This document shows positions 4,170 to 21,526 of a stretch of DNA of 24,146 nt, in pieces. The translations under genes were made by a program, and so were the position numbers. Where the stretch lies: the IMG/VR virus record IMGVR_UViG_2698536506_000006. One strand, 5' to 3'. Position 1 is the stretch's first letter. Each line of letters opens with the position of its first letter. The notes under the pieces were generated by a model. That model saw only the letters and a program-made list of their open reading frames with translations. It was not told where the DNA came from and made no database searches. Source of the stretch: a virus. Taxonomy: Duplodnaviria > Heunggongvirae > Uroviricota > Caudoviricetes.

Positions 4170-5023
4170 GCACCATCCTGAAATGGGCGGGAAATAAAAC
4201 TGCCATAATGTCCGAACTGAAAAAACATCTTCCTGCTGGCCCGCGACTGGTTGAACCTTTCGCGGGTTCCTGTGCTGTGATGATGGAGACGGATTATCCC
4301 AGCTATCTGGTTGCGGATATTAATCCTGATTTAATCAACCTCTATAAAAAGGTTGCCGCTGATTGTGAATCGTTTATATCTCGCGCCAGAGTTTTATTTG
4401 AGATCGCAAACAGGGAGGTGGCTTATTACAACATAAGGCAGGAGTTTAATTACTCAACTGAAATTACTGATTTCATGAAAGCGGTATATTTCCTGTATCT
4501 CAATCGTCACGGTTACCGTGGTTTATGTCGCTATAACAAGAGCGGGCATTTCAACATTCCCTACGGTAATTATAAAAATCCGTATTTCCCTGAAAAAGAA
4601 ATTCGCGCATTTGCAGAAAAGGCCCAGCGAGCAACGTTTATCTGCGCCAGCTTTGATGAAACGCTGGCGATGTTGAAGGCGGGGGATGTGGTGTATTGCG
4701 ATCCGCCGTATGACGGTACGTTTTCCGGCTATCACACTGACGGCTTCACTGAAGATGACCAGTATCACCTGGCATCTGTTCTTGAACATCGGTCATCAGA
4801 AGGACATCCGGTCATTGTTTCTAACAGTGACACATCCCTGATCCGTTCGCTGTATCGCAATTTTACTCACCACTACATCAAGGCAAAACGCAGCATCGGT
4901 GTGGCAGCTGGCGAGGGTAAATCAGCAACAGAAATTATTGCTGTTTCCGGGCCGCGCTGCTGGGTGGGATTTGATTATTCGCGTGGCGTGGATAGTTCTG
5001 CCGTGTACGGAGTACGTGCATGA
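4166..5023 (+). CDS. dam: DNA adenine methyltransferase (Dam family, N6-adenine)
   Basis: Begins [11 protein letters not shown]. AdoMet-binding motif EPFAGSCAV and catalytic DPPY ([11 protein letters not shown]). GGAGGT RBS. Translationally coupled to the upstream and downstream genes. Confidence 0.9.
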
Positions 5024-7407
5024 GTCATGCCGATATGAACAACTGCTGCGGCTTTAACGAAGCTGCCGCATCGTTCTCATGGAACAGCCCGAAAAAGGCC
5101 ATTAACCCTTATCTGGACCCGGCGGAAGTTGCGCCGGTTTCTGCGCTTTCAAACCTGATCACTCTGTACGCTACTGATAACGAGCAGGAACAACTGCGCC
5201 GCGAGGCACTGAGTGATCAGGTCTGGGAGCGTTATTTCTTTAATGAATCCCGTGATCCTGTCCAACGCGAAATGGAGCAGGATAAGCTCATTAGCCGGGC
5301 AAAGATGGCGCATGAGCAGCAGCGTTTTAATCCAGACATGGTCATTCTGACTGACGTCAACGCCCAGCCTTCCCATATCAGCAAGCCGCTGATGCAACGT
5401 ATTGAATATTTCAGCAGCCTGGGCAGGCCAAAGGCTTATTCCCGCTATTTGCGTGAGACGATTAAGCCATGTCTGGAACGACTGGAGCATGTACGCGACA
5501 GCCAGCTATCTGCATCTTTTCGTTTTATGGCAAGCCATGAAGGGCTGGACGGTCTGCTGATCCTGCCTGAAATGAGTCAGGATCAGGTGAAACGCCTGTC
5601 TACCCTTGTCGCTGCGCATATGAGCATGTGTCTTGATGCCGCTTGTGGTGATTTGTACGCCTCCGATGATGTTAAGCCAGAAGAAATCCGCAAGACATGG
5701 GAAAAGGTGGCTGCAGAAACCCTGCGACTGGATGTCATACCGCCTGCGTTTGAGCAACTCCGCCGGAAAAGAAACCGCCGCAAACCTGTGCCTTATGAAC
5801 TCATTCCGGGTTCGCTGGCGCGTATGCTGTGCGCCGACTGGTGGTATCGGAAATTATGGAAGATGCGTTGCGAATGGCGGGAAGAGCAGTTGCGTGCTGT
5901 CTGCCTGGTCAGCAAAAAAGCATCTCCCTATGTCAGCTATGAAGCCGTGATGCATAAACGTGAGCAGCGCCGTAAGTCGCTGGAGTTTTTCCGTTCTCAT
6001 GAACTGGTGAACGAAGACGGCGACACGCTGAACATGGAGGATGTGGTAAACGCCAGCAGCAGCAACCCGGCGCATCGCCGCAACGAGATGATGGCCTGTG
6101 TTAAAGGCCTGGAGCTTATCGCGGAAATGCGTGGTGACTGCGCCGTTTTCTACACCATCACCTGTCCGTCACGTTTCCATTCCACGCTAAATAACGGCAG
6201 GCCAAACCCGACCTGGACCAACGCGACAGTAAGACAAAGCAGCGATTATCTGGTCGGCATGTTTGCTGCATTTCGTAAGGCTATGCACAAAGCCGGGTTG
6301 CGCTGGTATGGCGTGCGGGTGGCTGAGCCGCATCATGACGGCACAGTTCACTGGCACCTGTTGTGTTTCATGCGCAAAAAAGACCGCCGCGCCATTACTG
6401 CATTGTTGCGTAAGTTTGCCATCCGTGAAGACCGCGAGGAGCTGGGCAATAACACGGGGCCACGCTTTAAGTCTGAGCTGATAAACCCGCGCAAAGGAAC
6501 GCCGACAAGCTACATTGCGAAATATATCAGTAAGAATATTGACGGGCGTGGTCTGGCTGGCGAGATCAGTAAGGAAACGGGTAAATCCCTGCGTGATAAC
6601 GCTGAATACGTTAATGCCTGGGCGTCTCTGCATCGTGTTCAGCAATTCCGCTTCTTTGGCATTCCGGGGCGTCAGGCTTACCGTGAACTGCGATTGCTGG
6701 CTGGTCAGGCGGCAAGGCAACAGGGTGACAAAAAAGCAGGTGCGCCGGTACTGGATAACCCGCGCCTTGATGCCATCCTGGCTGCTGCTGATGCTGGTTG
6801 TTTTGCCTCCTACATCATGAAGCAGGGCGGCGTACTGGTTCCCCGCAAATATCACCTCATCAGAACCGCTTATGAAATCAACGAAGAGCCGACCGCCTAT
6901 GGCGATCACGGTATTCGTATTTATGGCATCTGGTCACCCATTGCAGAGGGCAAGATCTGCACTCATGCAGTGAAGTGGAAAATGGTTCGTAAGGCCGTTG
7001 ACGTTCAGGAGGCGGCAGCCGACCAGGGCGCTTGCGCCCCTTGGACTCGTGGCAATAACTGTCCCCTTGTTGAAATTTTGAACCAATCAGGGGGCGAATC
7101 ACCCGAACCCAAAGAGCCGGAGGCGCTGCCGGATCTCCATAATCTGAGCGCGAGGGAACGGCGGGAGCTGACGGCCCGGCTGAGGCTGGTAAAACCGAAG
7201 CGGCGAAAAGGGTACAAACAGGAAATTAACGAACAGCAGCGTCAGCAGCTCGACGCTGAGTTGAGGTCCAGAGGGTTTGAAGCGAGTGAAACAGAGGTGG
7301 ATCTGCTTTTGCGTGGCGGCAGCATTCCGTCCGGGGCCGGGCTGCGTATTTTCTACCGCAACCAGCGCCTGCAGGAAGATGATAAGTGGCGGCAGTGGTA
7401 TTCATGA
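5020..7407 (+). CDS. A: Replication initiation endonuclease gpA (rolling-circle, HUH family)
   Basis: 795 aa. HUH-like motif [10 protein letters not shown] and active-site tyrosine region YIAKYISK. Position after the early regulators as in P2/186. Confidence 0.9.
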
Positions 7408-7497
7408 ATAGCCACAAGGGCACGCAATTACTGCAACGAGTCAGAAGTATCTCATTGAAAGCAAAAAAGCATTTTACATCCGGAAACTTCTTCTATA

Positions 7498-7528
7498 CTG
7501 TATATATAAACAGTGGATATATATACAG
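7498..7528. promoter_or_regulatory. Inverted repeat, candidate operator or promoter element upstream of ORF 7562
   Basis: CTGTATATATA (7498-7508) and its reverse complement TATATATACAG (7518-7528) separated by 9 nt, about 35 bp upstream of an AGGAGGGA RBS. Confidence 0.35.
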
Positions 7529-7561
7529 TTTATTTATCCGGCAGTATCGATAGGAGGGAAG

Positions 7562-7750
7562 ATGCAGGACTATTTTCTGGAGTCGTTGAAGCTCCAGCGC
7601 ATTGATTTTTTTATCAAGCTTGTAGCGGCGAGTGAGTGTGATGACGAAGAAAAGCAGCTGGCGATTCAGTGGGTTTCTGAGTTAACGGATGAGCTGATGG
7701 CGAAGATTCGTGCTCATGAATACAACCGCTCAATGGATATTCCCGGTTAG
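7562..7750 (+). CDS. Hypothetical protein, 62 aa
   Basis: Strong RBS AGGAGGGA. Acidic, helical-looking small protein. Lies between gpA and cos. Confidence 0.5.
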   Translation: MQDYFLESLKLQRIDFFIKLVAASECDDEEKQLAIQWVSELTDELMAKIRAHEYNRSMDIPG

Positions 7751-7828
7751 CAGCAGGAACGTTGCTGGCGCAAGAACTGGCTTCTTACGTCAGCAAGGTT
7801 GAACAACGAGTCCAGCGAGGCGTTAGCC

Positions 7829-8095
7829 ATGGCTAAATCCAACAGCAAATTCCAGACCGTCTATGAGGGGCAGGTGCTTGAGCGTTTCGAGCCCGGTGGA
7901 TGGGTCTTGTTTCAACGCCGTTCTGAATATGGCGGTAAGTTCTGGATGGGACGAACCATGGACGATGTATTTTTGTTTGGTCCCGATCATCCGGTATCTG
8001 GAGGTGAGGCTATGAGCTTCATCATTGATTACGAGGGTGAGCAATTCAGACGGTCTTTACCCGTCGAATATACCCCACAGATACCGCTTTTCTGA
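7829..8095 (+). CDS. Hypothetical protein, about 88 aa
   Basis: ATG at 7829 with GAGG upstream; the frame is open from 7799. Followed by a terminator-like hairpin. Confidence 0.5.
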   Translation: MAKSNSKFQTVYEGQVLERFEPGGWVLFQRRSEYGGKFWMGRTMDDVFLFGPDHPVSGGEAMSFIIDYEGEQFRRSLPVEYTPQIPLF

Positions 8096-8160
8096 GAACC
8101 GGCTGAGTGCATGTCTATGCTGCATGAGATCGCATGATCGTTTGAGGATCGTTTTCGCTG

Positions 8161-8190
8161 AAGCCCGCCAGAACTGGCGGGCTTTTGGTT
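8161..8190 (+). terminator. Rho-independent terminator-like hairpin
   Basis: AAGCCCGCC / GGCGGGCTT 9-bp stem with 6-nt loop, followed by TTTTGGTT. Confidence 0.55.
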
Positions 8191-8231
8191 ATGTCATGCA
8201 GGTGCATGAAAACCGCTACATAAAGCGGGCA

Positions 8232-8250
8232 GGCGTGGCGGGGATACGAG
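8232..8250. other. Candidate cos site (cohesive-end sequence of P2/186 type)
   Basis: GGCGTGGCGGGGATACGAG followed by CGCGCGC. Closely resembles the P2/186 cohesive ends as I recall them (GGCG[A/T]GGCGGGGAAAGCA...). Lies between the A-side and Q-side of the genome as expected. Confidence 0.5.
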
Positions 8251-8297
8251 CGCGCGCCCGGCTTGCTATTTGTTCGTTGCAACATTAGTATTCCTAT

Positions 8298-8450
8298 GCT
8301 CTTTAGCGTTAGGGAACCATTGCGTTCTAGCCGGGCGATAAGCCAGGCTCTAATTTATTGCTCAGTTTAGGGTTGCGAAAGCGACGAATTCGTCGCTTTC
8401 GCTGTCTTTAGTGAAGAGCTCGGCCCGCGCAAGCGGGCCTCACAAGCGGA
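8298..8450 (+). ncRNA. Candidate retron msr/msd non-coding RNA (boundaries approximate)
   Basis: Non-coding stretch immediately upstream of a retron-type RT. Contains a perfect 28-nt palindrome (8375-8402) and a GC hairpin with GCAA loop (8422-8439). Possible promoter TTGCTA (8263-8268), 17-nt spacer, TAGTAT (8286-8291). a1/a2 repeats were not resolved by eye. Confidence 0.35.
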
Positions 8451-9392
8451 ATGTTTATGGAAATTTTATCGGCTGTTAGCAAAGAACTTGGAGTAAACGT
8501 TAACGAGCTGAGGCGGTTATCGAGTGTTGCGCCTAAAAAATATAAAGTCTACACAATTCCTAAACGACAAAGTGGATTCAGGCTTATTGCTCAACCAACG
8601 AGTGAGATAAAGCGAATTCAGCGTGAGGTTGTGAAAATTTTGGCTTCCAAGCTCATCGTGCACGATGCAGCGAAAGCTTATAAAGTTTCTATAGGAATTA
8701 AGGACAATGCCAAAATCCATATGGCAAACTCCTATCTTTTAAAAATGGATTTTCAGAATTTCTTCAATAAAATTAAACCGGCTCTTTTATTTGATAAACT
8801 TCGCTCTCAAGGGGTTGTTTTGTCAGGTGAGGATAAGGAGTTTTTAGAAGGGATTCTTTTCTGGAAACCAGGAAAAAAAAGAAGTATCACTCTCGTGTTG
8901 AGCGTTGGGGCGCCATCCTCACCTTTTGTTAGTAATTTTGTAATGTATGATTTTGATAATTATATAAACAATTGGTGCTCTGTTAGGAATATTTCATATT
9001 CAAGGTATGCTGATGATATTACATTTTCTACAGATGAGAAGAATATACTTTTTGAGGTCCCGAAAGTAGTAAGGTTTGCATTATCATTATGTGCTAAAGG
9101 TATATCTTTAAATGAATCTAAAACTGTATTCACGTCTAAAGCTCATAATAGACATGTGACAGGTGTGACATTAACAGTTGATGGGGAGCTTTCGCTCGGT
9201 AGGCAAAAGAAGAGAATGATTTCTTCTCTGCTGCATAAATATACACTAGGCTTACTGGCTAAAGAGGATGTTATAAGCCTTAAGGGCTTTGTTGGACATG
9301 CTTTATATATCGAGCCTAAATTTATTGCTAGAATGAAAATTAAATATGGGAAAGAAGTAATACATGCGCTTTTTTCTGAGGAGGGGATGTGA
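8451..9392 (+). CDS. Retron-type reverse transcriptase
   Basis: RT motifs: GAPSSPFVSN (motif B-like), RYADDITFS (YADD catalytic motif) and the retron-characteristic VTG motif (NRHVTGVTLTVDG). AT-rich. Alternative start at ATG 8457. Confidence 0.85.
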   Translation: MFMEILSAVSKELGVNVNELRRLSSVAPKKYKVYTIPKRQSGFRLIAQPTSEIKRIQREVVKILASKLIVHDAAKAYKVSIGIKDNAKIHMANSYLLKMDFQNFFNKIKPALLFDKLRSQGVVLSGEDKEFLEGILFWKPGKKRSITLVLSVGAPSSPFVSNFVMYDFDNYINNWCSVRNISYSRYADDITFSTDEKNILFEVPKVVRFALSLCAKGISLNESKTVFTSKAHNRHVTGVTLTVDGELSLGRQKKRMISSLLHKYTLGLLAKEDVISLKGFVGHALYIEPKFIARMKIKYGKEVIHALFSEEGM

Positions 9393-11044
9393 ACTCAAAG
9401 TATACTAAATCACCAAATGACATTCGTACATTATTGCAGTCTTATGTAAATAAAACTGAAGATGGTTTAGAATTCAGTAAAGAGAACATTCCTGAAGAGG
9501 TATCTTCGTTATATAAGGAAATTGAAGATGCACCATTTCTTATAAATAAAGTCGCCATCTCAGACTATAAAAGAGTCAGGGATCTTTTTGTTTCGATCGA
9601 CAAAAAACTAACAGTGTTTGTTGGTGATAATGGTTACGGTAAAACCACCATTCTTGAAGCATTATTTATTGCTTTAAGTTGGTTTAGAGCAAATGTTCAA
9701 AAAGAAGATAAAAGCGGTTTTCATATAAAAGATGGTGATATTAACAATCATAATGATGTCAATTATGCTGCAATAACTGCGCAGTTTAAACTTAAAAAAA
9801 TAACGTCAAATATTTTAGTTACACGTGTTAAAGATGGAGTATCACAAAAAAGAAATAATGAGTTGCTTTCTATAAAAGAGATGGCGTCATTCTTTCGTGT
9901 TGTGAATTCATATTATGAAGATGTAAGCCTTCCGGTTCTTGCATATTACTCTGTATCAAGATCTTCAAATGGTGCAGGCATAGATAATAAAAGAAATGTT
10001 AATAATTCTGTGCGTCGATGGACTAAGCTTGATGCTTATGAAGATATAGAGTTTGATCGCCGTGACTTCGGTGAGTTTTTAAATTGGTTCATATTTGTTA
10101 ATAATAAGGCATTGTCTGAGGAGTCCTTGATACCAGAAAAACAAAGAGATCAACTTGTTATTGATATCTCAAAGCTTAAGGTATCTTTGGAGGTTTTGAA
10201 ATCTTTCAGTGATGTTGATAGAAGAACATTAATAGATATAGAAACACAAATTGCTAATAAAGAGTTGATTCTTAATACGTTACCGTCTACACCAAATGGT
10301 TTAAGTCGTTCAAAAGATATTGTTGCTAATGTTAAAAGGGCAATAATTAATTTCCTTCCTGAAATTAGCTCTGTTGAACTTCAATATACTGAAAATGAAG
10401 TTCGTTTAGTTTTAGCAAAAGATGATTTACTATTAGATGCCCAGCAACTCTCTCAAGGGGAGAAAACTATACTTACATTAGTGGGGGATTTAACAAGACG
10501 CTTGGTGTTGCTGAATCCTAAGTTAAATAATCCACTTCAAGGGAAAGGTATAGTATTAATTGATGAAGTTGATCTTCATTTGCACCCAAGCTGGCAGCAA
10601 AACATTATTGAGAAATTGCAGCATACATTTCCTAACGTACAATTCATAATTACCACTCATAGCCCTCAAATTGTATCGACAGTTCCAAGTAAATGCTTGC
10701 GCATCCTTGAGGAAATAAAAAACCCTTCGACAGGCATGAAGGAATTACGTGTGCTTTTACCATCATCTCAAACAAAAGGTACTAAGAATTCGTACGCTTT
10801 GCTTTATGGGATGAAAACAGATCCTGTACCTAATGTAAAAGAAGTCGCATGGCTGAGCACTTATAAGAAATTTATTGAAAACAGGCAGCAGGATTCGGAG
10901 GAAGCCATAATGATAAGGAAAAAGTTAGACAAGCATTATGGAATTGATCACCCATTATTACTTGAGTGTGATGGTATAATTCGTGTATTAAAGCTAAAAG
11001 ACAAAGTGCGGGGTGAGTCTGGCAATAAGGAATCTAAACAATGA
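9389..11044 (+). CDS. Retron-associated ATPase (PtuA/Septu-like, ABC/OLD-type)
   Basis: Walker A GDNGYGKTT, Walker B VLIDEVDLHLH, H-loop-like ITTHSPQ. GTG start overlapping the RT stop (ATGTGA), preceded by GAGGAGGGG. Confidence 0.8.
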   Translation: MNSKYTKSPNDIRTLLQSYVNKTEDGLEFSKENIPEEVSSLYKEIEDAPFLINKVAISDYKRVRDLFVSIDKKLTVFVGDNGYGKTTILEALFIALSWFRANVQKEDKSGFHIKDGDINNHNDVNYAAITAQFKLKKITSNILVTRVKDGVSQKRNNELLSIKEMASFFRVVNSYYEDVSLPVLAYYSVSRSSNGAGIDNKRNVNNSVRRWTKLDAYEDIEFDRRDFGEFLNWFIFVNNKALSEESLIPEKQRDQLVIDISKLKVSLEVLKSFSDVDRRTLIDIETQIANKELILNTLPSTPNGLSRSKDIVANVKRAIINFLPEISSVELQYTENEVRLVLAKDDLLLDAQQLSQGEKTILTLVGDLTRRLVLLNPKLNNPLQGKGIVLIDEVDLHLHPSWQQNIIEKLQHTFPNVQFIITTHSPQIVSTVPSKCLRILEEIKNPSTGMKELRVLLPSSQTKGTKNSYALLYGMKTDPVPNVKEVAWLSTYKKFIENRQQDSEEAIMIRKKLDKHYGIDHPLLLECDGIIRVLKLKDKVRGESGNKESKQ

Positions 11045-11709
11045 AATTCCTTGCTAGAAATCCCATTGGTCCAGGTGTTTTAGCCGAGTTTGACTACAAT
11101 ATTCATGACTGGAATGCTTTTAAACGGCGACATAAACAATTAGTCTGGGTCGGTTTAGTTGAAATGCAAGGGAAGAGATGTGCGTATTGTGAGCGGAAAA
11201 TAGATATTCACAATAGTGATGATAAGCATATCGAGCATTTTTTGCGTAGAAGCCAGCATAGGCATTTAACATTTGAATGGTCAAACTTGTTCGGCTCTTG
11301 TGCTGAAAATAATCACTGCGGTTTTTACAAAGATGAACAGAGCTATCAGGAGCAAGACCTAATCAAGGCCGATAATGATGACCCCACACATTTTTTCCAT
11401 TTCGCTATTAATGGAAATATGGATATTCGTCCGGGGTTATCGCGAAACGATGAGCGAAGAGCTGAGGTTACTATAAGGGTTTTTAACCTGAATGGTGAAA
11501 AGGGCGGCGTGAAAACTGAGCGCATCAATGCAATATCAGAAACATGGTCATTGATAGAGAGATTTGTTTCTACAGCTGAAGAGTTCATCGAAGAGGGACT
11601 TTATGATGATAGTGTCCGTAACGAACTTCGAGACGAGTATTATAAAGAAATAGACCCCAGACCATTCTCTACTGCGTTGCGTGATGTTTTTGATACGATG
11701 CTTCCTTAA
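11041..11709 (+). CDS. Retron-associated HNH endonuclease (PtuB-like)
   Basis: HNH-type motif CAYCE...DDKHIEHF...N...SCAENNHC. Start overlaps the ATPase stop (ATGA). Confidence 0.8.
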   Translation: MKFLARNPIGPGVLAEFDYNIHDWNAFKRRHKQLVWVGLVEMQGKRCAYCERKIDIHNSDDKHIEHFLRRSQHRHLTFEWSNLFGSCAENNHCGFYKDEQSYQEQDLIKADNDDPTHFFHFAINGNMDIRPGLSRNDERRAEVTIRVFNLNGEKGGVKTERINAISETWSLIERFVSTAEEFIEEGLYDDSVRNELRDEYYKEIDPRPFSTALRDVFDTMLP

Positions 11710-11741
11710 ATTAAAGAGTCTCATTTGAGACTCTTTAATTT
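11708..11741. terminator. Bidirectional terminator between the convergent retron operon and portal gene
   Basis: Near-perfect inverted repeat AAATTAAAGAGTCTCA / TGAGACTCTTTAATTT with a 2-nt loop, between the HNH stop and the portal stop. Confidence 0.6.
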
Positions 11742-12766
11742 TACATCGAATATTCTTTAAAATTTATTATATCGTCATTTAACCATCGGTTGATTTCACA
11801 GATTCTTTGCTGTAAGGGGATTACTTCATTTCTTACAAAAACCTTACTAGCCTTTTCCACATCCCCAAACCCGCCAACATTACTCGGCATAATCCCCATC
11901 ATCTGAGGCGGCACACGATGCGCCGCCATCATGTCATCCCGGCTCACGTTCTTGATATTCAAAAACTCATCCTTCGCCGCGACTTCTGACAACGGGATGA
12001 TCTGAAGCCCGTCCTTTTTGCCGTTAGGCGAGTACATAAACAGGTTGCGGAAGTTACCTGGGCCTTTGGCGCTTTTCATCGCGTTGCGGAGGTTGTTCAC
12101 ATCCTCCTGGTTTTGTGCGGCGTCGGTCATGTACATGATGAAGCCTGCATGACTGCCGTTAATGTAATACTTCCGGCGGAACAGCGTGGCGGACTCGTTG
12201 AGCAGGGCTGACGGAATGGCAGAAAGATAACCGGGCAGGCCGTAGATCTCCTGGTTGATGTCCGGTTCCATCAGATGAAAAATGCTGCCTTTCGTGAACT
12301 GATACGGCTGGGTTGTCATACCGTATTGCACAAACCAGTAGGTATCCAGGTCTAACCCGCGTCGTGTGTATTTTGCCAGGGCAGGTTCAAAGGCGATAAT
12401 TTCACCGAAGCGGTTCGTGCGTTTCTCCAGGTAGGCGTTACCAAATACCAGATAGTCCTGCACAAAACGTGAAAAAGCCTGCTGGCTGAGCAGCGGGTGA
12501 GGGATGTAGGTACTGGTCAGAATGTTGCATTTCACCGCAATTGGTGAACTGTGATGCACGGCGGCGCGGAAGGTGCGCGCCAGTCCGTCAAAGCTTACTG
12601 GCGGCTCATACCAGCGATCTGTCTGTACGCATTCCACATAGTCCAGTAATTCGCGGCGGTCCAGAACAGGAACGGGATCACCGAAGCTGAATGCTTCGGC
12701 TGAAGTTTGTTTTTTATACTGGATCTGATTCGTCGCCGCAGCGCGGTTCTTCTTACTCTTTCCCAT
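11741..12766 (-). CDS. Q: Portal protein (P2 gpQ-like)
   Basis: About 341 aa, the size and position of P2 Q. ATG at 12766-12764 overlaps the terminase stop (ATGA arrangement on the minus strand). Confidence 0.9.
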   Translation of the reverse strand: MGKSKKNRAAATNQIQYKKQTSAEAFSFGDPVPVLDRRELLDYVECVQTDRWYEPPVSFDGLARTFRAAVHHSSPIAVKCNILTSTYIPHPLLSQQAFSRFVQDYLVFGNAYLEKRTNRFGEIIAFEPALAKYTRRGLDLDTYWFVQYGMTTQPYQFTKGSIFHLMEPDINQEIYGLPGYLSAIPSALLNESATLFRRKYYINGSHAGFIMYMTDAAQNQEDVNNLRNAMKSAKGPGNFRNLFMYSPNGKKDGLQIIPLSEVAAKDEFLNIKNVSRDDMMAAHRVPPQMMGIMPSNVGGFGDVEKASKVFVRNEVIPLQQRICEINRWLNDDIINFKEYSM

Positions 12767-14532
12767 CAAAAAATCTCCACAATATTGCTGGTATTGGCGG
12801 ACTCGCCCTGCAGCGGTTCGTTAAACAGTGCGTGCATTGTTGCCCAGGCCAGATCGGCATGGCTGGCTTCTTCGCTGCGGCTGGCTTCATAGGTCGGGCG
12901 GTTGCCGCTGGCGGTGGTGGCACGGCGGATTGCCATGAATGACTGCGCAATGTCGGTGTGTCCGGCGTCAAACTCCAGACGGCGGTGGCTGATAATGTCG
13001 TAGGCCTTGAGTACCAGGGCGTTTTTAACATTGGGGTTATAGACAAACTCCCGGACGGCAGGAAAAAACGCTTTCACGTTCTCATAAACCCCGTGACCGA
13101 CGCCTGTCGAGTCGATGCCGATATAGGTCACGTTGTACTGCTCGGTCAGTTTTTTGATTGCATCAGCTTGGGCGCGGAAGTCCATCCCGCGCCACTGGTG
13201 ACGCTCAAGAATGCGAAACTTACCGCCTGGCACGGCTGGCGGTGCCACCACCACGCATCCGGCGCTGTCGCCGTTCTGCGTACCTTTTGCCGGGTCATAA
13301 CCGATCCACACCTCGCGCCAGCCAAACGGGCGCAGGGCCAGTGCATGAAAGTCGGTCCAGACTTCCCAACTGTCCACCATGCATGCCTGCAGCTCGCTGA
13401 GCGGGAACACGGACGCGAGATCGTCCACAAACTCGCACATCAGCAGGTTCTGGTATTCGTCCGGGCTGTACTCCATGCGCAACTGGTCGAGGTCGAACAG
13501 GTTACAGCCGCCGCGCACCGCATCTTCCACGGTGACTATCTGGCGGTATTGCCCGTCTGCGCACAGCAGGCCGGGGGCCAAGTTGCTGTGGGACAGGTCG
13601 ATGTCCACCTTGTCGGCTTTGTTGCGTCCACGGTTGAACAGCGCACCGGACCAGAATGGATAAGCACTGTGGGTCAGACTGGATGGCGTGGAAAAATAGG
13701 TCTGCCGCCATTTTTTGTGAATAGCCATACCGGAAGCCACTTTGCGCAGCTCCTGGAATTTCGGGATCCAGAAATATTCATCCAGATACAGGTTGCCGTG
13801 GTAACTCTGGGCCGTGCGGGCATTGGTGCCGAGGAAGTAAAGCGTGGCCCCGTTAGGAAGCACCATCGGATCGCCTTTCAGCTCCACCTCCACTTCTTTG
13901 GCAAAGTCGATGATGTACTGTTTAAAGACGTGGGCCTGAGCCTTGCTGGCAGAAAGGAAAATCTGGTTACGCCCGGTCAGCAGGGCGTCAATCAGGGCTT
14001 CACGGGCAAAGTAAAAGGTCGCGCCGATCTGGCGTGACTTCAGCAGGTTGCGGATGCGGTTGGTTTTTCCGGCTTCCCACCAGTGGCGCTGGTAGTTGAA
14101 CATGGAGGAATGGAAGATTTCTTCCAGCTTCTCAATCTGTTCATCGGTGAAAACATTCTTTTCCGGCTGACGGCGCGGGCCTTTGTTGCGGTTGGCGACG
14201 TTTGGGTTTAAGTCGGCTTCGTTGCCGCCATTGTTAAACTTGCCGATCCGCGCGTGGCGTTCCGACTGGCGCGCCAGCAGGTCAATCTCTTTGAAATCTT
14301 TCCCTTCTTTGTGCTCCTTCATAATGAGCTGGCAGTAGCGTGCGGCGGTGGTGAGCTGCATCTGATCCAGCGGCCCATAGTCACCCCACTTGTCGCGTTT
14401 TTTCCAGCTGTGAACGGTTGCAACTTTCTCGCCCAGCATTTCAGCAATGCGGGCTACGCGGTATCCCTGAAAGTACAGCAGCATGGCCTGCCGACGGGGA
14501 TCGAGATCTGCGGGTGTCAGTGTGGTGTTCAT
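12766..14532 (-). CDS. P: Terminase large (ATPase) subunit (P2 gpP-like)
   Basis: 588 aa, divergent from the scaffold gene as in P2 (P/O divergent late promoters). Confidence 0.9.
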   Translation of the reverse strand: MNTTLTPADLDPRRQAMLLYFQGYRVARIAEMLGEKVATVHSWKKRDKWGDYGPLDQMQLTTAARYCQLIMKEHKEGKDFKEIDLLARQSERHARIGKFNNGGNEADLNPNVANRNKGPRRQPEKNVFTDEQIEKLEEIFHSSMFNYQRHWWEAGKTNRIRNLLKSRQIGATFYFAREALIDALLTGRNQIFLSASKAQAHVFKQYIIDFAKEVEVELKGDPMVLPNGATLYFLGTNARTAQSYHGNLYLDEYFWIPKFQELRKVASGMAIHKKWRQTYFSTPSSLTHSAYPFWSGALFNRGRNKADKVDIDLSHSNLAPGLLCADGQYRQIVTVEDAVRGGCNLFDLDQLRMEYSPDEYQNLLMCEFVDDLASVFPLSELQACMVDSWEVWTDFHALALRPFGWREVWIGYDPAKGTQNGDSAGCVVVAPPAVPGGKFRILERHQWRGMDFRAQADAIKKLTEQYNVTYIGIDSTGVGHGVYENVKAFFPAVREFVYNPNVKNALVLKAYDIISHRRLEFDAGHTDIAQSFMAIRRATTASGNRPTYEASRSEEASHADLAWATMHALFNEPLQGESANTSNIVEIF

Positions 14533-14578
14533 GGCACAAACCTACAGCCTTGAATGAAGGCTTTCCCCGCCTGCGGTT

Positions 14579-14596
14579 TGTGTGGTTGTCGGTACA
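14579..14596. promoter_or_regulatory. Candidate Ogr/B activator binding site (TGT-N12-ACA) in the P/O divergent late promoter region
   Basis: TGT at 14579-14581, 12-nt spacer, ACA at 14594-14596, in the 142-bp intergenic region between the P and O starts. Matches the late-promoter activator site consensus of P2-like phages. Confidence 0.4.
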
Positions 14597-14674
14597 AATA
14601 CCGCGCATTGTTTCACTGCCCCCATCACCGCAACCATAAGGCCCCAGTAAGTTTTTTCTAACGGAGCACGGCTC

Positions 14675-15508
14675 ATGACAGTGAAAGCAAAGCGTTTTCG
14701 CATCGGGGTGGAAGGTGCCACCACCGACGGACGCGAAATCCAGCGTGAATGGCTGGAACAGATGGCAGCCAGCTACAACCCGGCGGTGTATACCGCGCTG
14801 ATTAACCTTGAGCACATCAAGTCTTATCTGCCGGACAGCACCTTTAACCGCTACGGCAAGGTGACGGCGCTGTTTGCTGAAGAAATCACGGAAGGTCCGC
14901 TGGCAGGCAAGATGGCATTGTATGCCGACGTTGAGCCAACGGAGTCCCTGGTGGAACTGGTGAAAAAAGGCCAGAAATTATTCACCTCTATGGAAGTCAG
15001 CCCTAAGTTCGCTGATACGGGCAAAGCCTACCTGGTTGGACTGGCCGCCACTGATGATCCCGCCAGTCTGGGTACGGAAATGCTGACATTCAGCGCCAGT
15101 GCAGCCCATAACCCGCTGGCAAACCGCAAGCAGAATCCCGCCAATCTTTTTACCGCTGCAGAGGAAACAGTGATCGAACTGGAAGAAGTCCAGGACGAAA
15201 AACCATCCCTGTTTGCCCGTGTCACGGCGCTGTTCACCAAAAAAGAGCAGTCCGATGATGCCCGGTTCTCTGATGTGCATAAGGCCGTGGAGCTGGTCGC
15301 CACTGAGCAGCAAAACCTGAGTGCGCGCACCGAAAAATCCCTGTCTGAACAGGAAGAACGCCTGTCTGAGCTGGAGACAGCCCTGCAGACACAGTTGACC
15401 GCCTTTAACGAACTGGTGGACAAGCTGAGCCATGAAGACAGCCGCCAGGACTACCGCCAGCGTGCAACAGGCGGTAACGCCCCCGCTGACACTCTGACCA
15501 ATTGCTGA
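14675..15508 (+). CDS. O: Capsid scaffolding protein (P2 gpO-like)
   Basis: 277 aa, directly upstream of the major capsid gene; size and order as in P2. Confidence 0.85.
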   Translation: MTVKAKRFRIGVEGATTDGREIQREWLEQMAASYNPAVYTALINLEHIKSYLPDSTFNRYGKVTALFAEEITEGPLAGKMALYADVEPTESLVELVKKGQKLFTSMEVSPKFADTGKAYLVGLAATDDPASLGTEMLTFSASAAHNPLANRKQNPANLFTAAEETVIELEEVQDEKPSLFARVTALFTKKEQSDDARFSDVHKAVELVATEQQNLSARTEKSLSEQEERLSELETALQTQLTAFNELVDKLSHEDSRQDYRQRATGGNAPADTLTNC

Positions 15509-15524
15509 TGGAGCACAAAACCTG

Positions 15525-16583
15525 ATGAAGAAGAATACCCGCTTTGCTTTTAACGCTTACCTGCAGCAGCTGGCGCGTCTGAACGGTGTGGCAGTTGAAG
15601 AACTGTCCAGCAAGTTCACCGTGGAGCCGTCTGTACAGCAGACGCTGGAAGACCAGATCCAGCAGTCCGCCGCTTTCCTGACGCTGATTAACGTCACGCC
15701 AGTGACTGAGCAGTCCGGTCAGCTGCTGGGGTTGGGTGTTGGTAGCACCATTGCCGGAACCACTGACACCACCGCGAAAGAGCGTGAACCTGTCGATCCT
15801 ACGCTGATGGTCGATGTGGAATACAAATGCGAGCATACCAACTTTGACACGGTGCTGACCTACGCGAAGCTGGACCTGTGGGCGAAATTTCAGGATTTCC
15901 AGGTGCGTATCCGTGACGCCATCGTGAAACGTCAGGCACTGGACCGCATCATGATCGGCTTTAACGGCGTGAAGCGTGCGAAAACCTCCAACCGTAGTGA
16001 AAACCCGCTGCTGCAGGATGTGAACAAAGGCTGGCTGCAGAAAATCCGTGAGGATGCACCGGATCACGTCATGGGCAGCACCACCACAGGCGGTGAAACC
16101 ACACCGGGCGCGGTGAAAGTCGGTAAAGGTGGCGAATATGCCAACCTGGACGCCGTGGTGATGGATGCCGTCAATGAGCTTATCGACGTGGTCTACCAGG
16201 ACGATGACGATCTGGTGGTGATTTGCGGTCGTGAACTGTTGTCTGACAAGTATTTCCCACTGGTCAACAAAGAGCAGGAAAACAGTGAAAAACTCGCTGC
16301 CGATATGATCATCAGTCAGAAACGCATGGGTGGCCTGCAGGCCGTGCGTGCGCCGTTCTTCCCGCCGAATGCACTGCTGATCACCCGGCTGGATAACTTG
16401 TCCATCTACTGGCAGGAAGACACCCGCCGCCGTTCAGTTATCAACAACCCGAAACGTGACCGGATTGAAAACTTTGAATCCGTTAATGAAGCCTATGTGG
16501 TTGAGGACTACCGCTGCGCCGCACTGGTGGAAAACATCCAGATTGGTGATTTCAGCGCCGCCGCAGCCGAAACCGGAGCGTAA
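15525..16583 (+). CDS. N: Major capsid protein (P2 gpN-like)
   Basis: 352 aa. N-terminal pattern (..TRF.FNAYL...A.LNG......KFTVEPSV.QTL) matches P2 gpN as recalled. Confidence 0.9.
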   Translation: MKKNTRFAFNAYLQQLARLNGVAVEELSSKFTVEPSVQQTLEDQIQQSAAFLTLINVTPVTEQSGQLLGLGVGSTIAGTTDTTAKEREPVDPTLMVDVEYKCEHTNFDTVLTYAKLDLWAKFQDFQVRIRDAIVKRQALDRIMIGFNGVKRAKTSNRSENPLLQDVNKGWLQKIREDAPDHVMGSTTTGGETTPGAVKVGKGGEYANLDAVVMDAVNELIDVVYQDDDDLVVICGRELLSDKYFPLVNKEQENSEKLAADMIISQKRMGGLQAVRAPFFPPNALLITRLDNLSIYWQEDTRRRSVINNPKRDRIENFESVNEAYVVEDYRCAALVENIQIGDFSAAAAETGA

Positions 16584-16586
16584 TCC

Positions 16587-19403
16587 ATGAGCCTGAGTCC
16601 CGCACGGCAGCATCGCCTGCGCGTTCAGGCTGAACAGGCCGCCCGCGAGGGCGGCAGTGTTCGCCACGCATCGGGCTATGACCTGATGCTGCTGCAACTG
16701 GCGGAAGACCGCCGCCGTCTCAAGGGCGTTCAGTCCACGGTCAAAAAAGCGGAAATCAAGGTGGAGCTGCTGCCGAAGTACGCCGCCTGGGCAGAGGGTG
16801 TCCTGGCTGCCGGAGGCGCTCAACAGGATGACGTGCTGATGTACGTGATGCTGTGGCGCATTGATGCCGGAGATTATGCCGGGGCGCTGGAGATCGGGCG
16901 TCACGCCCTGCGTCATGGCTGGGTGATGCCGTTGGGTAACCGCAACGTGCAGACCGTGCTGGCAGAGGAAATGGCAGACGCGGCGCAGAGCGCAATGCTT
17001 GCCGCCACCGGCTTTGATGCTGATCTGTTGCTGCAGACGCTGGAGCTGACAGACGGTCTGGATATGCCGGACCAGTCACGGGCACGTCTGCATAAAGCGA
17101 TTGGCGCTGTCTGGACCGACGGCATTGGTAATACGTCAGGCGTCATTCCCGGCAAAACCATTACGGAGCGACAGGCAGCAGAAGGGCTGATCTCCAACGT
17201 GCTGCGTGTCGAGCGGGCGCTGGAAAGGTGTGTGAAGCAACAGCCGCCGCAGAAGGTGTATGACGCTGCGGTGTCGTTTGCCTTCAACGTGGGAACGGGC
17301 AATGCCTGCAGTTCCACGCTGGTGAAATTACTCAATCAGCGGCGCTGGGCAGATGCGTGCCGACAGTTGCCGCGCTGGGTTTATGTGAAAGGTGTTTTTA
17401 ATCAGGGGCTGGATAACAGGCCAACCGCCGCGCAGGCAAAGTTATTCAGTCAGGCCAAAACACGAGTACAGGAACTTCAGCAGACTTATAACGGCTTGTT
17501 GGGGGCGGTCCAGAGACAACGTCAGGCACTTAAAGAATCAGGGATTGATACCAGACAACTCAGTAGTGCCCAGCGAGAACTTAAAAAAAATGCTGAAGAA
17601 ACAAGGCAGGCACTGGAGGGCCAGCAAAAAGCACTTAAACGTCTGGGTGAACAACAGGCACGGATGAACGCTGCCAGAGAACAATACTCAAGACGGCTTG
17701 AAGTGCGCGATCGCATCGCAGGAGCCGGAGCCACTACCACGGCTGCAGGGCTGGCAATGGGTGCGCCAGTGATGGCGGCAGTAAAAAGCTATACCAGCAT
17801 GGAAGATGCCATGAAAGGTGTGGCAAAGCAGGTCAATGGTCTGCGTGACGATAATGGCAACCGCACTGCACGTTTTTATGAAATGCAGGATGCCATCAAG
17901 GCTGCCAGCGAACAGTTGCCGATGGAAAACGGTGCGGTGGACTTCGCTGCACTGGTTGAAGGTGGTGCGCGCATGAACGTCGCAAACCCTGACGACAGCT
18001 GGAAAGACCAGAAACGTGACCTGCTGGCCTTCGCCAGTACGGCAGCAAAGGCGGCAACAGCCTTTGAGCTGCCAGCGGATGAACTGTCAGAAAGTCTGGG
18101 GAAAATCGCCCAGCTCTACAAAATACCTACGGCAGCAGTAACTCGAACCAGCAGCGCGTTGTCCTGGCTGGCTGGCGCACCACTGGCACTGCTGCGACGC
18201 GGGCTTGCTTCATCGGGCAACGCAGCGGGTTTACTTACTGCGCCGTTGTCGTCTTTGCGCCGCACGGCATCACTGACGGGGAATGTCCTGAAAACTGTAG
18301 CAGGTGTGCCGGTTGCACTGTTGCGGTCTGGATTATCCGGTTTACGTGCTGTTGCTGTGATGTTTATGAATCCACTGGCAGCACTACGCGGTGGACTGGC
18401 TGCCGCAGGCGCGGTGCTGCGAGTGCTGGCATCCGGTCCGCTGGCGATGCTGCGCGTTGCTCTGTATGCCGTATCTGGTCTGTTAGGTGCTCTGCTCAGT
18501 CCGATAGGTCTTGTGGTTACTGCACTGGCAGGCGTGGCGCTGGTTGTCTGGAAATACTGGCAACCCATCACCGCATTTCTCGGTGGCGTGGTGGAAGGAT
18601 TCAAAGCGGCGGCAGGTCCCATCAGTGCTGCATTCGAACCACTTAAGCCTGTGTTTCAGTGGATTGGCGACAAAGTGCAGGCGCTGTGGGGCTGGTTTAC
18701 TGATCTGCTGACGCCTGTTAAGTCGACCTCTGCCGAACTGCAGAGCGCAGCGGCAATGGGGCGACGATTCGGGGAGGCACTGGCGGAAGGGCTGAATATG
18801 GTCATGCATCCGCTGGACTCCCTGAAATCCGGCGTTTCCTGGTTGCTGGAGAAACTCGGCATTGTCAGTAAAGAGGCTGCAAAGGCGAAACTGCCGGAAA
18901 GCGTGACGCGTCAGCAACCTGCGACGGTGAATGCAGACGGTAAAGTGATGATGCCATCAGGTGGTTTTCCATCATGGGGATATGGTTTTGCGGGGATGTA
19001 TGACAGCGGTGGGTATATCCCGCGCGGGCAGTTTGGCATTGTCGGTGAAAACGGGCCTGAAATTGTCAACGGCCCGGCAAACGTGACCAGCCGGAGAAAT
19101 ACAGCTGCACTGGCTGCCGTTGTTGCCGGAATGATGGGTGTTGCTGCCGCGCCAGTAGAGCTTCCACCGTTGCACCCTTTGGCATTTCCCGCGAAAGGCG
19201 GTGAAGCGATGGTGAGTCGCGCAGCCACTGTGCCGCCCGTTCAACGGATTGAGGCACCGACGCAGATCATCATCCAGACGCAGCCAGGACAAAGTGCGCA
19301 GGATATTGCGCGGGAGGTGGCACGCCAGCTTGATGAACGTGAACGCAGGCTGAAGGCAAAAGCCAGGAGTAACTACAGCGATCAGGGGGGATACGACGCA
19401 TGA
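16587..19403 (+). CDS. Chimeric 938-aa ORF: gpM-like N-terminus (about aa 1-170), lysozyme-like C-terminal segment (about aa 175-280), then tail tape-measure protein gpT-like (about aa 290-938)
   Basis: N-terminus has gpM-like features (...AQQDDVLMYVMLWRIDAGDYAGALEIGRHALRHG...). Middle has GH24 phage-lysozyme C-terminal motifs (VYDAAVSFAFNVGTGNACSSTLVKLLNQRRWADACRQLPRWVY). The remainder is coiled-coil plus Ala/Leu/Gly-rich hydrophobic repeats typical of tape-measure proteins, ending just before gpU. Junctions approximately at nt 17080-17110 and 17400-17455. Confidence 0.7.
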   Translation: MSLSPARQHRLRVQAEQAAREGGSVRHASGYDLMLLQLAEDRRRLKGVQSTVKKAEIKVELLPKYAAWAEGVLAAGGAQQDDVLMYVMLWRIDAGDYAGALEIGRHALRHGWVMPLGNRNVQTVLAEEMADAAQSAMLAATGFDADLLLQTLELTDGLDMPDQSRARLHKAIGAVWTDGIGNTSGVIPGKTITERQAAEGLISNVLRVERALERCVKQQPPQKVYDAAVSFAFNVGTGNACSSTLVKLLNQRRWADACRQLPRWVYVKGVFNQGLDNRPTAAQAKLFSQAKTRVQELQQTYNGLLGAVQRQRQALKESGIDTRQLSSAQRELKKNAEETRQALEGQQKALKRLGEQQARMNAAREQYSRRLEVRDRIAGAGATTTAAGLAMGAPVMAAVKSYTSMEDAMKGVAKQVNGLRDDNGNRTARFYEMQDAIKAASEQLPMENGAVDFAALVEGGARMNVANPDDSWKDQKRDLLAFASTAAKAATAFELPADELSESLGKIAQLYKIPTAAVTRTSSALSWLAGAPLALLRRGLASSGNAAGLLTAPLSSLRRTASLTGNVLKTVAGVPVALLRSGLSGLRAVAVMFMNPLAALRGGLAAAGAVLRVLASGPLAMLRVALYAVSGLLGALLSPIGLVVTALAGVALVVWKYWQPITAFLGGVVEGFKAAAGPISAAFEPLKPVFQWIGDKVQALWGWFTDLLTPVKSTSAELQSAAAMGRRFGEALAEGLNMVMHPLDSLKSGVSWLLEKLGIVSKEAAKAKLPESVTRQQPATVNADGKVMMPSGGFPSWGYGFAGMYDSGGYIPRGQFGIVGENGPEIVNGPANVTSRRNTAALAAVVAGMMGVAAAPVELPPLHPLAFPAKGGEAMVSRAATVPPVQRIEAPTQIIIQTQPGQSAQDIAREVARQLDERERRLKAKARSNYSDQGGYDA

Positions 19404-19885: not shown

Positions 19886-20982
19886 ATTTCAGCTCTGAAC
19901 TGCTTAACAAAGGCAACAAAACTCCCGCATTCAGCATCAGTATTGAGGGCAGGGATATCACCACTGTGCTGGACAACCGCCTGATGGGGCTTACGCTGAC
20001 GGACAATCGGGGCTTTGAAGCGGACCAGCTTGATCTGGAGCTGGACGACGCCGATGGAAAAATCGTGCTGCCGCGCCGTGGTGCGGTCATTACGCTGGCG
20101 CTGGGCTGGAAGGGGCAGCCGCTTTTCCCGAAAGGGGCATTCACGGTGGACGAGATTGAACACACTGGCGCACCGGACCGCCTGACTATCCGGGCGCGAA
20201 GTGCTGATTTTCGGGAAACGCTGAATACCCGCCGTGAAAAATCGTGGCACAAGACCACCGTCGGGGAAGTGGTGAAGGAAATAGCCTCGCGGCACAAGCT
20301 GAAGATGGCACTGGGTAAAGACCTGTCGGATAAGCTCGTAGAGCATATAGACCAGACTAATGAGAGTGACGGCAGTTTTCTGATGCGGCTGGCGCGACAG
20401 TACGGTGCCATCGCGTCGGTGAAAAATGGCAATCTGTTATTCATCCGGCAGGGGCAGGGCAAAAGCGCCACTGGTAAACCACTGCCGGTGATCACTATCA
20501 CACGCAAGGACGGCGACAGTCACCGCTTTACCCTGGCAGATCGCGGAGCCTACACGGGAGTAATTGCCAGCTGGTTGCATACCCGCGAACCCGCGAAGAA
20601 AGAAAGCACCACGGTGAAGCGTAAGCGCAGGACTAAGAAGCAGAAGAAAGAGCCGGAAGCGAAGCAGGGCGATTACCTGGTGGGTACGGATGAAAACGTG
20701 CTGGTACTTAATCGCACTTATGCCAACCGGAGCAACGCCGAACGAGCGGCGAAAATGCAGTGGGAACGCCTGCAACGCGGCGTTGCGTCATTCTCGTTAC
20801 AACTGGCGGAAGGGCGGGCAGATCTCTACACGGAAATGCCTGTGAAAGTCAGTGGCTTTAAACAGCCGATAGATGATGCGGAATGGACCATTACCACCCT
20901 GACGCATTCCGTTAGCCCGGATAACGGTTTTACGACCAGTCTTGAACTTGAAGTGAGGATTGATGATTTCGAAATGGAATGA
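19882..20982 (+). CDS. D: Tail protein gpD-like
   Basis: 366 aa following U with overlapping stop/start; order as in P2. Confidence 0.8.
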   Translation: MNFSSELLNKGNKTPAFSISIEGRDITTVLDNRLMGLTLTDNRGFEADQLDLELDDADGKIVLPRRGAVITLALGWKGQPLFPKGAFTVDEIEHTGAPDRLTIRARSADFRETLNTRREKSWHKTTVGEVVKEIASRHKLKMALGKDLSDKLVEHIDQTNESDGSFLMRLARQYGAIASVKNGNLLFIRQGQGKSATGKPLPVITITRKDGDSHRFTLADRGAYTGVIASWLHTREPAKKESTTVKRKRRTKKQKKEPEAKQGDYLVGTDENVLVLNRTYANRSNAERAAKMQWERLQRGVASFSLQLAEGRADLYTEMPVKVSGFKQPIDDAEWTITTLTHSVSPDNGFTTSLELEVRIDDFEME

Positions 20983-21072
20983 TTCTTCGCAATGGAGAAC
21001 TTTTAAGTTTGCAAAATGGAATAATGCGGTATCATTATTGTGAATTTAGCAAAAATGGGGAGAACTCGAAAA

Positions 21073-21291
21073 ATGATGATTTGCCCACTGTGTGGAAGTG
21101 CCGCCCATACTCGCAGCAGTTTTCAGGTATCTTCATTGACCAAAGAGCGTTACAACCAGTGCCAGAACATTAACTGCAGCCATACTTTTGTTACCCATGA
21201 AACTTTTGTTCGTTCGATTGCAACGCCAAAAGAGTCAAATCCGGTTCAGCCGCATCCAATGAAATCAGGACAGGTGGCGCTCTCTCTTTGA
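21073..21291 (+). CDS. ogr: Ogr/B/Delta-family zinc-finger late transcription activator
   Basis: CPLCGSAAH...YNQCQNINCSHTF four-Cys zinc finger closely matching the P2 Ogr pattern (CPLC...H.CQN.NC). Rightmost phage gene, as in P2. Start ambiguous (21040 GTG, 21073 or 21076 ATG). Confidence 0.8.
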   Translation: MMICPLCGSAAHTRSSFQVSSLTKERYNQCQNINCSHTFVTHETFVRSIATPKESNPVQPHPMKSGQVALSL

Positions 21292-21370
21292 CGCTGCCGC
21301 CATTTTGTCGCCATCGTTAAAAAACAGTGCTTCTAACATCATGATTTTAAACAGCTTAAATTTCAGGCAA

Positions 21371-21414
21371 CAAAAAACCCATCAACCTTGAACCGAAATG
21401 GCGGGGTTGATGGG
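21371..21414 (-). terminator. Rho-independent terminator, probably for ybjL
   Basis: 10-bp stem CCCATCAACC / GGTTGATGGG (21378-21387 and 21405-21414); on the minus strand it is followed by TTTTTTG. About 110 nt downstream of the ybjL stop. Confidence 0.45.
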
Positions 21415-21526
21415 CTCCACAAAATGGGGACATCAAAGAAAAGCAGTGGCACTAATTAAGACTGATGCCCTGCGGAAAAGTTCTGCGGTTGTGCAAAAAA
21501 ATTTCATTTTCAGGGCAACTTCAGTT

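Follow-up and report, generated by a model that had tools for sequence, protein, structure and literature searches.

A probable Fels-2/SEN8-lineage cos site adjoining a retron in a deleted P2-like prophage

P2-like phages share a characteristic arrangement around the cohesive-end (cos) site, which lies downstream of gpA and upstream of the Q and P genes (Rousset et al. 2022, PMC9122126). The variable cargo that adjoins cos between gpA and gpQ, within conserved borders, is described in the same study as the defence hotspot of P2-like phages. A 55-bp conserved cos common to P2 and P4 is credited to Ziermann and Calendar 1990 in the citing passages of PMC9594776 and PMC9122126. Salmonella phage SEN8 provides a published counterpart of the site described here: its virions were CsCl-purified and came from a single plaque, and the genome paper gives ggcgtggcggggatacgag as cos, by annotation (PMC5427200).

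Here, we describe the corresponding site in a stretch of viral DNA of 24,146 nt (hereafter the window), which Pfam and NCBIfam scans identify as a P2-like prophage. Signed positions are counted from the putative top-strand nick, with window position 8232 as +1. Positions 8203-8257, together with a flank that begins at about 8107, very probably constitute the cos of a prophage of the Fels-2/SEN8 lineage, located next to rybB in an E. coli-type chromosome. Judged by its sequence, the 19-base segment at 8232-8250 is a real Peduoviridae cos of an already published variant, intact in its letters and ordinary in kind. The observations behind this reading are sequence identity, position, conservation, terminase pairing and the deletions of the prophage.

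The cos sequence, its core and its left flank

The site consists of a 19-nt cohesive-end sequence set in a 55-bp core, with a conserved region to its left:

8232-8250, plus strand: 19-nt cohesive-end sequence GGCGTGGCGGGGATACGAG, the same as the annotated and published SEN8 cos; the homologous 19 nt are annotated as cos in P2 and 186
8203-8257, plus strand: cos core, -29 to +26, the block common to P2 and P4, placed by ungapped alignment
8107-8202, plus strand: conserved left flank of cos, a candidate terminase recognition region, with this role proposed from conservation among relatives

Read directly from the window, the 19-mer is followed by CGCGCGC at 8251-8257. The reference cohesive ends, taken from the P2 and 186 records, are GGCGAGGCGGGGAAAGCAC (P2 cosL) and GGCGTGGCGGGGAAAGCAT (186 cos). 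The window sequence is the same as that of 186 over nucleotides 1-13 and differs in four of the six final bases (positions 14, 16, 17 and 19), giving an identity of 15/19 to 186 and 14/19 to P2, while GCGCGC at +21 to +26 is common to all three. The initial annotation, made from the letters of the DNA, had described a cos-like sequence followed by CGCGCGC that agrees with 186 over 13 nt and diverges in the last six, and this description is exact. Its assignment of the site to the P2/186 family is borne out by the 55-bp core, the upstream TGCATG blocks and the canonical gene position.

The site is unique in the window. The P2-family start, GGCG(A/T)GGCGGGGA, has its sole exact match at 8232-8244, and the pattern GGCGWGGCGGGGA-N7-GCGCGC, with up to three mismatches allowed and both strands scanned, is matched once. 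A search of both strands of the window for a second or better cos found none; a loose match to the 13-mer at 4980, with two mismatches, is at chance level. A better cos match elsewhere had been named in the initial annotation as evidence that would count against the site, and the window scan yields no other candidate.

When the ends of P2 and P4 are aligned directly, 52/55 positions match over exactly -29 to +26 and the sequences diverge outside this block, in agreement with the 55-bp common cos attributed to Ziermann and Calendar 1990. The window core aligns without gaps to the same block in SEN8 (53/55), the Yersinia phage vB_YpM_MLG42 (hereafter MLG42; 53/55), 186 (45/55), P4 (44/55) and P2 (43/55), the figures for P2 and 186 coming from the comparison that the initial annotation had proposed as a check. 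All three blocks of the core, TGCAT(T/G)AAAACC, AAGCGGGC and GCGCGC, are present in the window. Comparison with relatives found no private substitution in the window's 55-bp core, and over the longer interval from -125 to +26 the only rare bases are those at -76 and -44, both outside the core.

A blastn search of phage records with window positions 7400-8460 as the query matched 88 records. Over the interval from -125 to +26, 56 phage records match, Fels-2 and RE2010 among them, and every full-length alignment listed stops at +26; identity over this interval is about 83-94% for Fels-2, RE2010 and many Klebsiella phages. The last base of the SEN8 record aligns with window position 8231, and its first bases are the 19-mer, annotated there as a 'putative cos site'. 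The 26-mer GGCGTGGCGGGGATACGAGCGCGCGC is identical in the window, SEN8 and MLG42, the last of which is a plaque-isolated phage with a complete 31.2-kb genome. The 813R9 record was rejected as proof of viability in favour of SEN8 and MLG42; this predicted prophage is incomplete, is flanked by host DNA and has a truncated tail region.

The left flank is 90-94% identical to those of MLG42, Fels-2, RE2010 and SEN8 over about 125-150 bp. Across 37 viral contigs with the same variant, most 10-nt bins between about -120 and -1 show an ungapped identity to the window of about 0.7-0.98. Conservation from -125 to -1 was confirmed position by position on 120 contigs among the matches listed, and among these matches most positions from about -120 to -1 show the window's base in at least 80% of the loci that carry the exact 26-mer. 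The flank contains GCATG motifs at 8109-8113, 8122-8126 and 8132-8136, as well as a terminator-like hairpin at 8163-8182 followed by a T run at 8183-8186. The upstream TGCATG blocks are also present in P2, P4 and 186. An inverted repeat of the form CCGC...GCGG at 8213-8228 was dropped as a structural element, since the commonest relatives have CCAC and the stem is not kept.

A palindrome, CATGCAGGTGCATG, spans the junction of flank and core at 8195-8208 (-37 to -24). Its central GG is replaced by CC in some relatives (CATGCACCTGCATG) with the dyad preserved, a pattern that would be expected of the binding site of a symmetric protein.

Gene context, hotspot cargo and prophage deletions

The genes around the site follow the order of P2-like phages, and the main landmarks are as follows:

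5020-7407, plus strand: gpA, from Pfam and NCBIfam matches, followed by two small ORFs and then cos
11741-12769, minus strand: portal, gpQ homologue, apparently full length (Pfam Phage_portal; 93% identical over 344 aa to the Q of 813R9)
12766-14532, minus strand: apparently intact gpP homologue (large terminase) with both an ATPase and an RNaseH-like nuclease domain (Pfam Terminase_6N, Terminase_6C and Terminase_5)
16587-19403, plus strand: 938-aa in-frame fusion ORF joining gpM, a lysozyme fragment and the C-terminal part of gpT, from Pfam and protein comparison
21369-21447, minus strand: rybB, full-length RybB sRNA gene (105 bits), abutting the prophage end

The early genes comprise an integrase, whose ORF ends at window position 1, a 186-type CI repressor, CII and a Dam methylase. 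The position of cos is canonical, with gpA upstream and the antiparallel Q and P genes downstream; among the 120 related loci listed, Q lies to the right of cos on the minus strand in 87/87 of those with a Q match. The window gpP is 100% identical to that of 813R9 over the 560 aa available. The scaffold gene O and the capsid gene N follow Q and P, and all four appear intact. Beyond the fusion ORF come U, D, a small ORF at 20979-21173 and the chromosomal genes rybB and ybjL. The small ORF occupies the place of an annotated ogr/Delta-like gene in the prophage of E. coli AREA_497 and has no family match in the window.

Similarity to all relatives stops at 8257 (+26). Beyond this point similarity is random, and the 120 listed loci contain 95 distinct right flanks, compared as 30-mers. 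The distance from +26 to Q ranges from 156 to 3528 nt in 87 of these 120 loci and is 3484 nt in the window. The window therefore shows the features by which the P2-like defence hotspot is recognized, namely variable cargo between gpA and gpQ beside cos, with conserved borders. The cargo is an Ec78-type retron:

8258-11740, plus strand: hotspot cargo, Ec78-type retron, from Rfam, Pfam and NCBIfam matches
8298-8366, plus strand: msr (Rfam, 55.1 bits against a gathering score of 52)
8375-8402, plus strand: msd hairpin, within the retron
8451-9392, plus strand: retron reverse transcriptase (RT; retron_St85_RT, 309.5 bits)
9389-11044, plus strand: PtuA-like ATPase (PtuA, 460.7 bits, below the cutoff of 500)
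11041-11709, plus strand: PtuB HNH nuclease (PtuB, 151.3 bits)

A homologue of the retron RT is found in 9/120 listed loci, where it starts about 270-1900 nt to the right of cos. In complete E. coli genomes, 1272/5426 match part of the window interval 7900-11760; most of the listed matches cover 7900-8257 and stop at +26, and the whole retron cassette is present in only two of the 5426, AREA_497 and M37H. Some E. coli genomes, including NZ_CP026641.1 (3059657-3059928), show a continuous match of about 85% to window positions 8103-8381, which runs through cos into msr. The continuity suggests that related retrons have been inserted there at this very junction, +26. A consensus scan for a sigma-70 promoter between cos and msr found none, and a candidate noted by eye at about 8273-8301 (TTGCTA, 17 nt, TAGTAT) is unsupported by that scan.

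In the two nearest E. coli genomes, AREA_497 and M37H, the msd hairpin (8375-8402 in the window) is longer by 48 bp. The segment absent from the window, at about 20487-20534 of the AREA_497 locus, extends exactly from one GAATTC to the next; these are EcoRI sites, one per hairpin arm. This loss reduces the msd stem from about 36 bp to 12 bp. Natural slippage across the hairpin could account for the shortening, as could an assembly artefact or a laboratory deletion.

Compared with intact MLG42, three segments are missing from the window (MLG42 positions 5261-6506, 6816-16622 and 17340-18167), about 11.9 kb in total, with deletion junctions at 17109/17110, 17415-17417 and 18131/18132 of the window. 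The losses comprise the gpM C-terminus, L, X, the holin, most lysis genes, R, S, V, W, J, I, H, G, FI, FII, E and part of T, bearing out the tail and lysis defects that the initial annotation had ascribed to this prophage. In the fusion ORF, which records the deletions that make the prophage defective, Pfam places Phage_term_smal at residues 35-163 and Phage_lysozyme at residues 170-278; the small terminase gpM retains about the first 175 of its 216 residues, fused to the lysozyme fragment and the tape measure gpT. The three late-region junctions are all in frame, an outcome with a chance of about 1 in 27. A complete cognate terminase was looked for in the same element and was not found, gpP being intact and gpM truncated and fused. 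The truncation of gpM bears on the autonomy of the element and not on the identity of its cos site.

The 3' end of rybB holds the attachment-site core, AACAAAAAACCCAT, at 21369; the left copy of the core, judged from AREA_497, lies just outside the window. Because the core overlaps the rybB terminator, the prophage is integrated in the 3' end of rybB and regenerates the gene. Between its attachment sites the element measures about 21.8 kb, compared with 31-35 kb in intact relatives, and DNA of this length may be ill suited to a full-size head. E. coli AREA_497 (NZ_CP123329.1, locus 11700-34300) carries the same prophage, with the same cos and the same retron, inserted likewise at rcdA/ybjL (rybB). 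Its deletion differs: a truncated portal is joined to the baseplate gene V, with the head genes gone and the tail genes retained, the reverse of the pattern in the window.

A lineage form of cos and its putative packaging partners

In a variant-neutral scan of viral contigs, in which motif positions 14-20 were left free, the 120 loci among the matches listed comprise the window 19-mer (37 loci), the P2 form (31), a form with ATAGCAT (22) and the 186 form (11), among others. The window form, whose 19-mer ends in ATACGAG, is thus the commonest variant in this sample. A separate scan of viral contigs for the exact 26-mer gave at least 120 loci. The cos variant is closely paired with the terminase genes beside it: where cos ends in ATACGAG or ATACGAT, gpP is 84-100% and the N-terminal part of gpM 81-100% identical to those of the window, compared with 62-70% and 47-59% at loci with other cos forms. 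The window thus combines the exact 26-mer, the conserved left flank and the matching gpP/gpM lineage that together mark the Fels-2/SEN8-type variant.

One contig with this 26-mer, IMGVR_UViG_2700989567_000009, has an unusual setting. Its cos adjoins a Rac-like/lambdoid early region instead of gpA, with genes for RecE-like, RecT, YdaT, a DnaC/IstB-like ATPase and an integrase, and a DndB-like gene on the hotspot side. It may be a hybrid phage. It had been considered as a satellite with this cos, lacking as it does a gpA match, and was rejected as such, its early region being Rac-like and not P4-type.

By analogy with P2 and 186, we infer the nick positions of the site, its cleavability and its possible mobilisation as follows. 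In an excised circular copy, the terminase of the lineage (gpP as the large and gpM as the small subunit) would recognise the conserved left flank and the core. It would nick the two strands 19 nt apart, the top strand before 8232 (+1) and the bottom strand after 8250 (+19), which would yield 19-nt 5' cohesive ends of sequence GGCGTGGCGGGGATACGAG. Since complete gpM, gpL, the lysis genes and the tail are absent, any use of the site would require a helper, and it could be put to use only where a co-resident phage of like packaging type provided the missing functions. With the element's own small terminase truncated and fused, the site may never be cut in its present host.

Plasmids that bear cos are packaged in trans by P2 helpers (PMC2231350, PMC9942202), so the helper principle is sound. 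In P2/P4 cosmids, longer cos flanks give higher transduction efficiency (PMC9594776), and the cargo-specific right flank of the window could therefore affect efficiency.

In the initial annotation, a functional site was taken to allow packaging by a helper, with P2 or 186 proposed as the helper to test. On this reading, P2 or 186 could use the site as a functional cos, the terminases of the family tolerating variation at the 3' end of the overhang as they do between P2 and 186. The first 13 nt at the 5' end, GCGCGC at +21 to +26 and much of -29 to -1 are indeed shared with P2, 186 and P4 (43-45/55). Both P2 and 186 can act as helper for P4, whose cos is of the P2 form, which indicates a degree of tolerance. 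However, the changes in the window include +19 and +20, the bases on both sides of the putative bottom-strand nick, and the variant is strictly paired with gpP and gpM proteins that are only about 63% and 50% identical to those of P2/186-form loci. In addition, the variant occurs at none of the sampled loci adjacent to the satellite gene psu, which suggests a separate specificity class, although the samples are phylogenetically non-independent. We consider use of the site by P2 or 186 unlikely. A helper of the Fels-2/SEN8 type is the likelier candidate, because terminase type follows cos variant, the changed bases flank the putative bottom-strand nick and the satellites show the pattern described below; the samples behind this preference are biased and non-independent. 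From these sequence comparisons we also infer that the terminase specificities of the P2/186-form and window-form lineages differ.

The satellite pattern comes from two comparisons. Among 74 cos sites linked to P4-type Psu, from a sample dominated by close P4 relatives, none carries the ATACGAG variant (0/74); all end in AAAGCAC, AGAGCAT, AAAGCAT or GGAGCAT (74/74). The ATACGAG form was seen only beside phage genes. Likewise, psu adjoins cos in 0/120 listed loci with the exact 26-mer and in 10/80 loci with other forms (Fisher p = 7e-5, from biased and phylogenetically non-independent samples). A literature search on cos specificity classes, or on Fels-2 as a helper of P4, found nothing. The ATACGAG-type cos might represent a separate packaging-specificity class that P4-type satellites do not or cannot exploit, with deleted prophages such as this one as helper-dependent carriers of retrons, but we regard this proposal as quite improbable; the evidence for it is one correlation, seen in the Psu-linked sites and in the exact-26-mer loci. 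If it held, this type of cos could offer a way out of satellite piracy. Deleted prophages like the present one, which at about 21.8 kb retain integrase, the repressor, genes for replication and a defence cassette beside an intact cos, might then move as satellite-like elements via Fels-2-type helpers.

The initial annotation had also raised the possibility of decay, should the 3' divergence inactivate the site; on such a reading, the four substitutions would represent the mutational erosion of a 186-type cos in a dying prophage. The prophage is indeed degraded, having lost about 11.9 kb and acquired a gpM-lysozyme-gpT fusion ORF, and its 19-mer matches that of 186 at only 15/19 positions. However, SEN8 and MLG42, both viable phages, carry the identical 26-mer, as do at least 120 viral contigs, the form is the commonest in the sample and tracks a distinct terminase lineage that the window itself encodes, and the 55-bp core is free of private change. 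A decayed relic is thus very unlikely, and the suggestion is not supported. For the same reasons (occurrence in viable phages, abundance in the sample, terminase pairing and the lack of private core changes), ATACGAG followed by C is, on comparative grounds, the standard form of its lineage that matches the adjoining terminase genes, and not a product of erosion. That the site is a chance GC-rich resemblance unrelated to packaging, which the shortness of the motif alone would favour, has a negligible probability and is counted as already refuted, given that none of 100 dinucleotide-preserving shuffles of the window matched the GGCGWGGCGGGGA-N7-GCGCGC pattern, that about 150 bp of flanking sequence is homologous to phage cos regions (E = 4e-59) and that the gene context is canonical.

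Relation to described cos systems

The annotation of the locus is settled by these comparisons: the site is the sequence-intact true cos of the prophage, and the retron occupies a documented defence slot adjacent to cos. A natural misreading is also corrected, in that departure from the textbook P2/186 cos is a lineage variant linked to the terminase and not a sign of decay. The variant can serve as a quick marker of packaging lineage, and it indicates a Fels-2/SEN8-type phage, rather than P2 or 186, as the helper to try. The site, the variant and the neighbourhood are all of kinds already known, and a specialist will find nothing unexpected in them.

The closest systems are those of SEN8, Fels-2, RE2010 and MLG42 (Felsduovirus and related Peduoviridae), which share with the window both the terminase lineage and the placement of cos, with the gpA region on one side and Q/P on the other. 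In SEN8 and MLG42, both the 19-mer and the CGCGCGC that follows are identical to those of the window. These systems differ from the window to the right of +26, where the window has an Ec78-type retron and the SEN8/Fels-2-type relatives have other genes or almost nothing. Moreover, the window element is a deleted prophage, whereas SEN8 and MLG42 are viable phages.

The cos of 186 (Eganvirus) resembles that of the window in its first 13 nt, in GCGCGC at +21 to +26, in GGGCA before the cut and in the TGCATG blocks. It differs at positions 14, 16, 17, 19 and 20, and its gpP and gpM are about 63% and 56% identical to those of the window. The cos of P2 and P4 has the same architecture, with a 19-nt 5' overhang region inside a block from -29 to +26 and a defence hotspot adjoining it. 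P2 has its cargo genes, old and tin, on the left of cos, whereas in the window the cargo is on the right.
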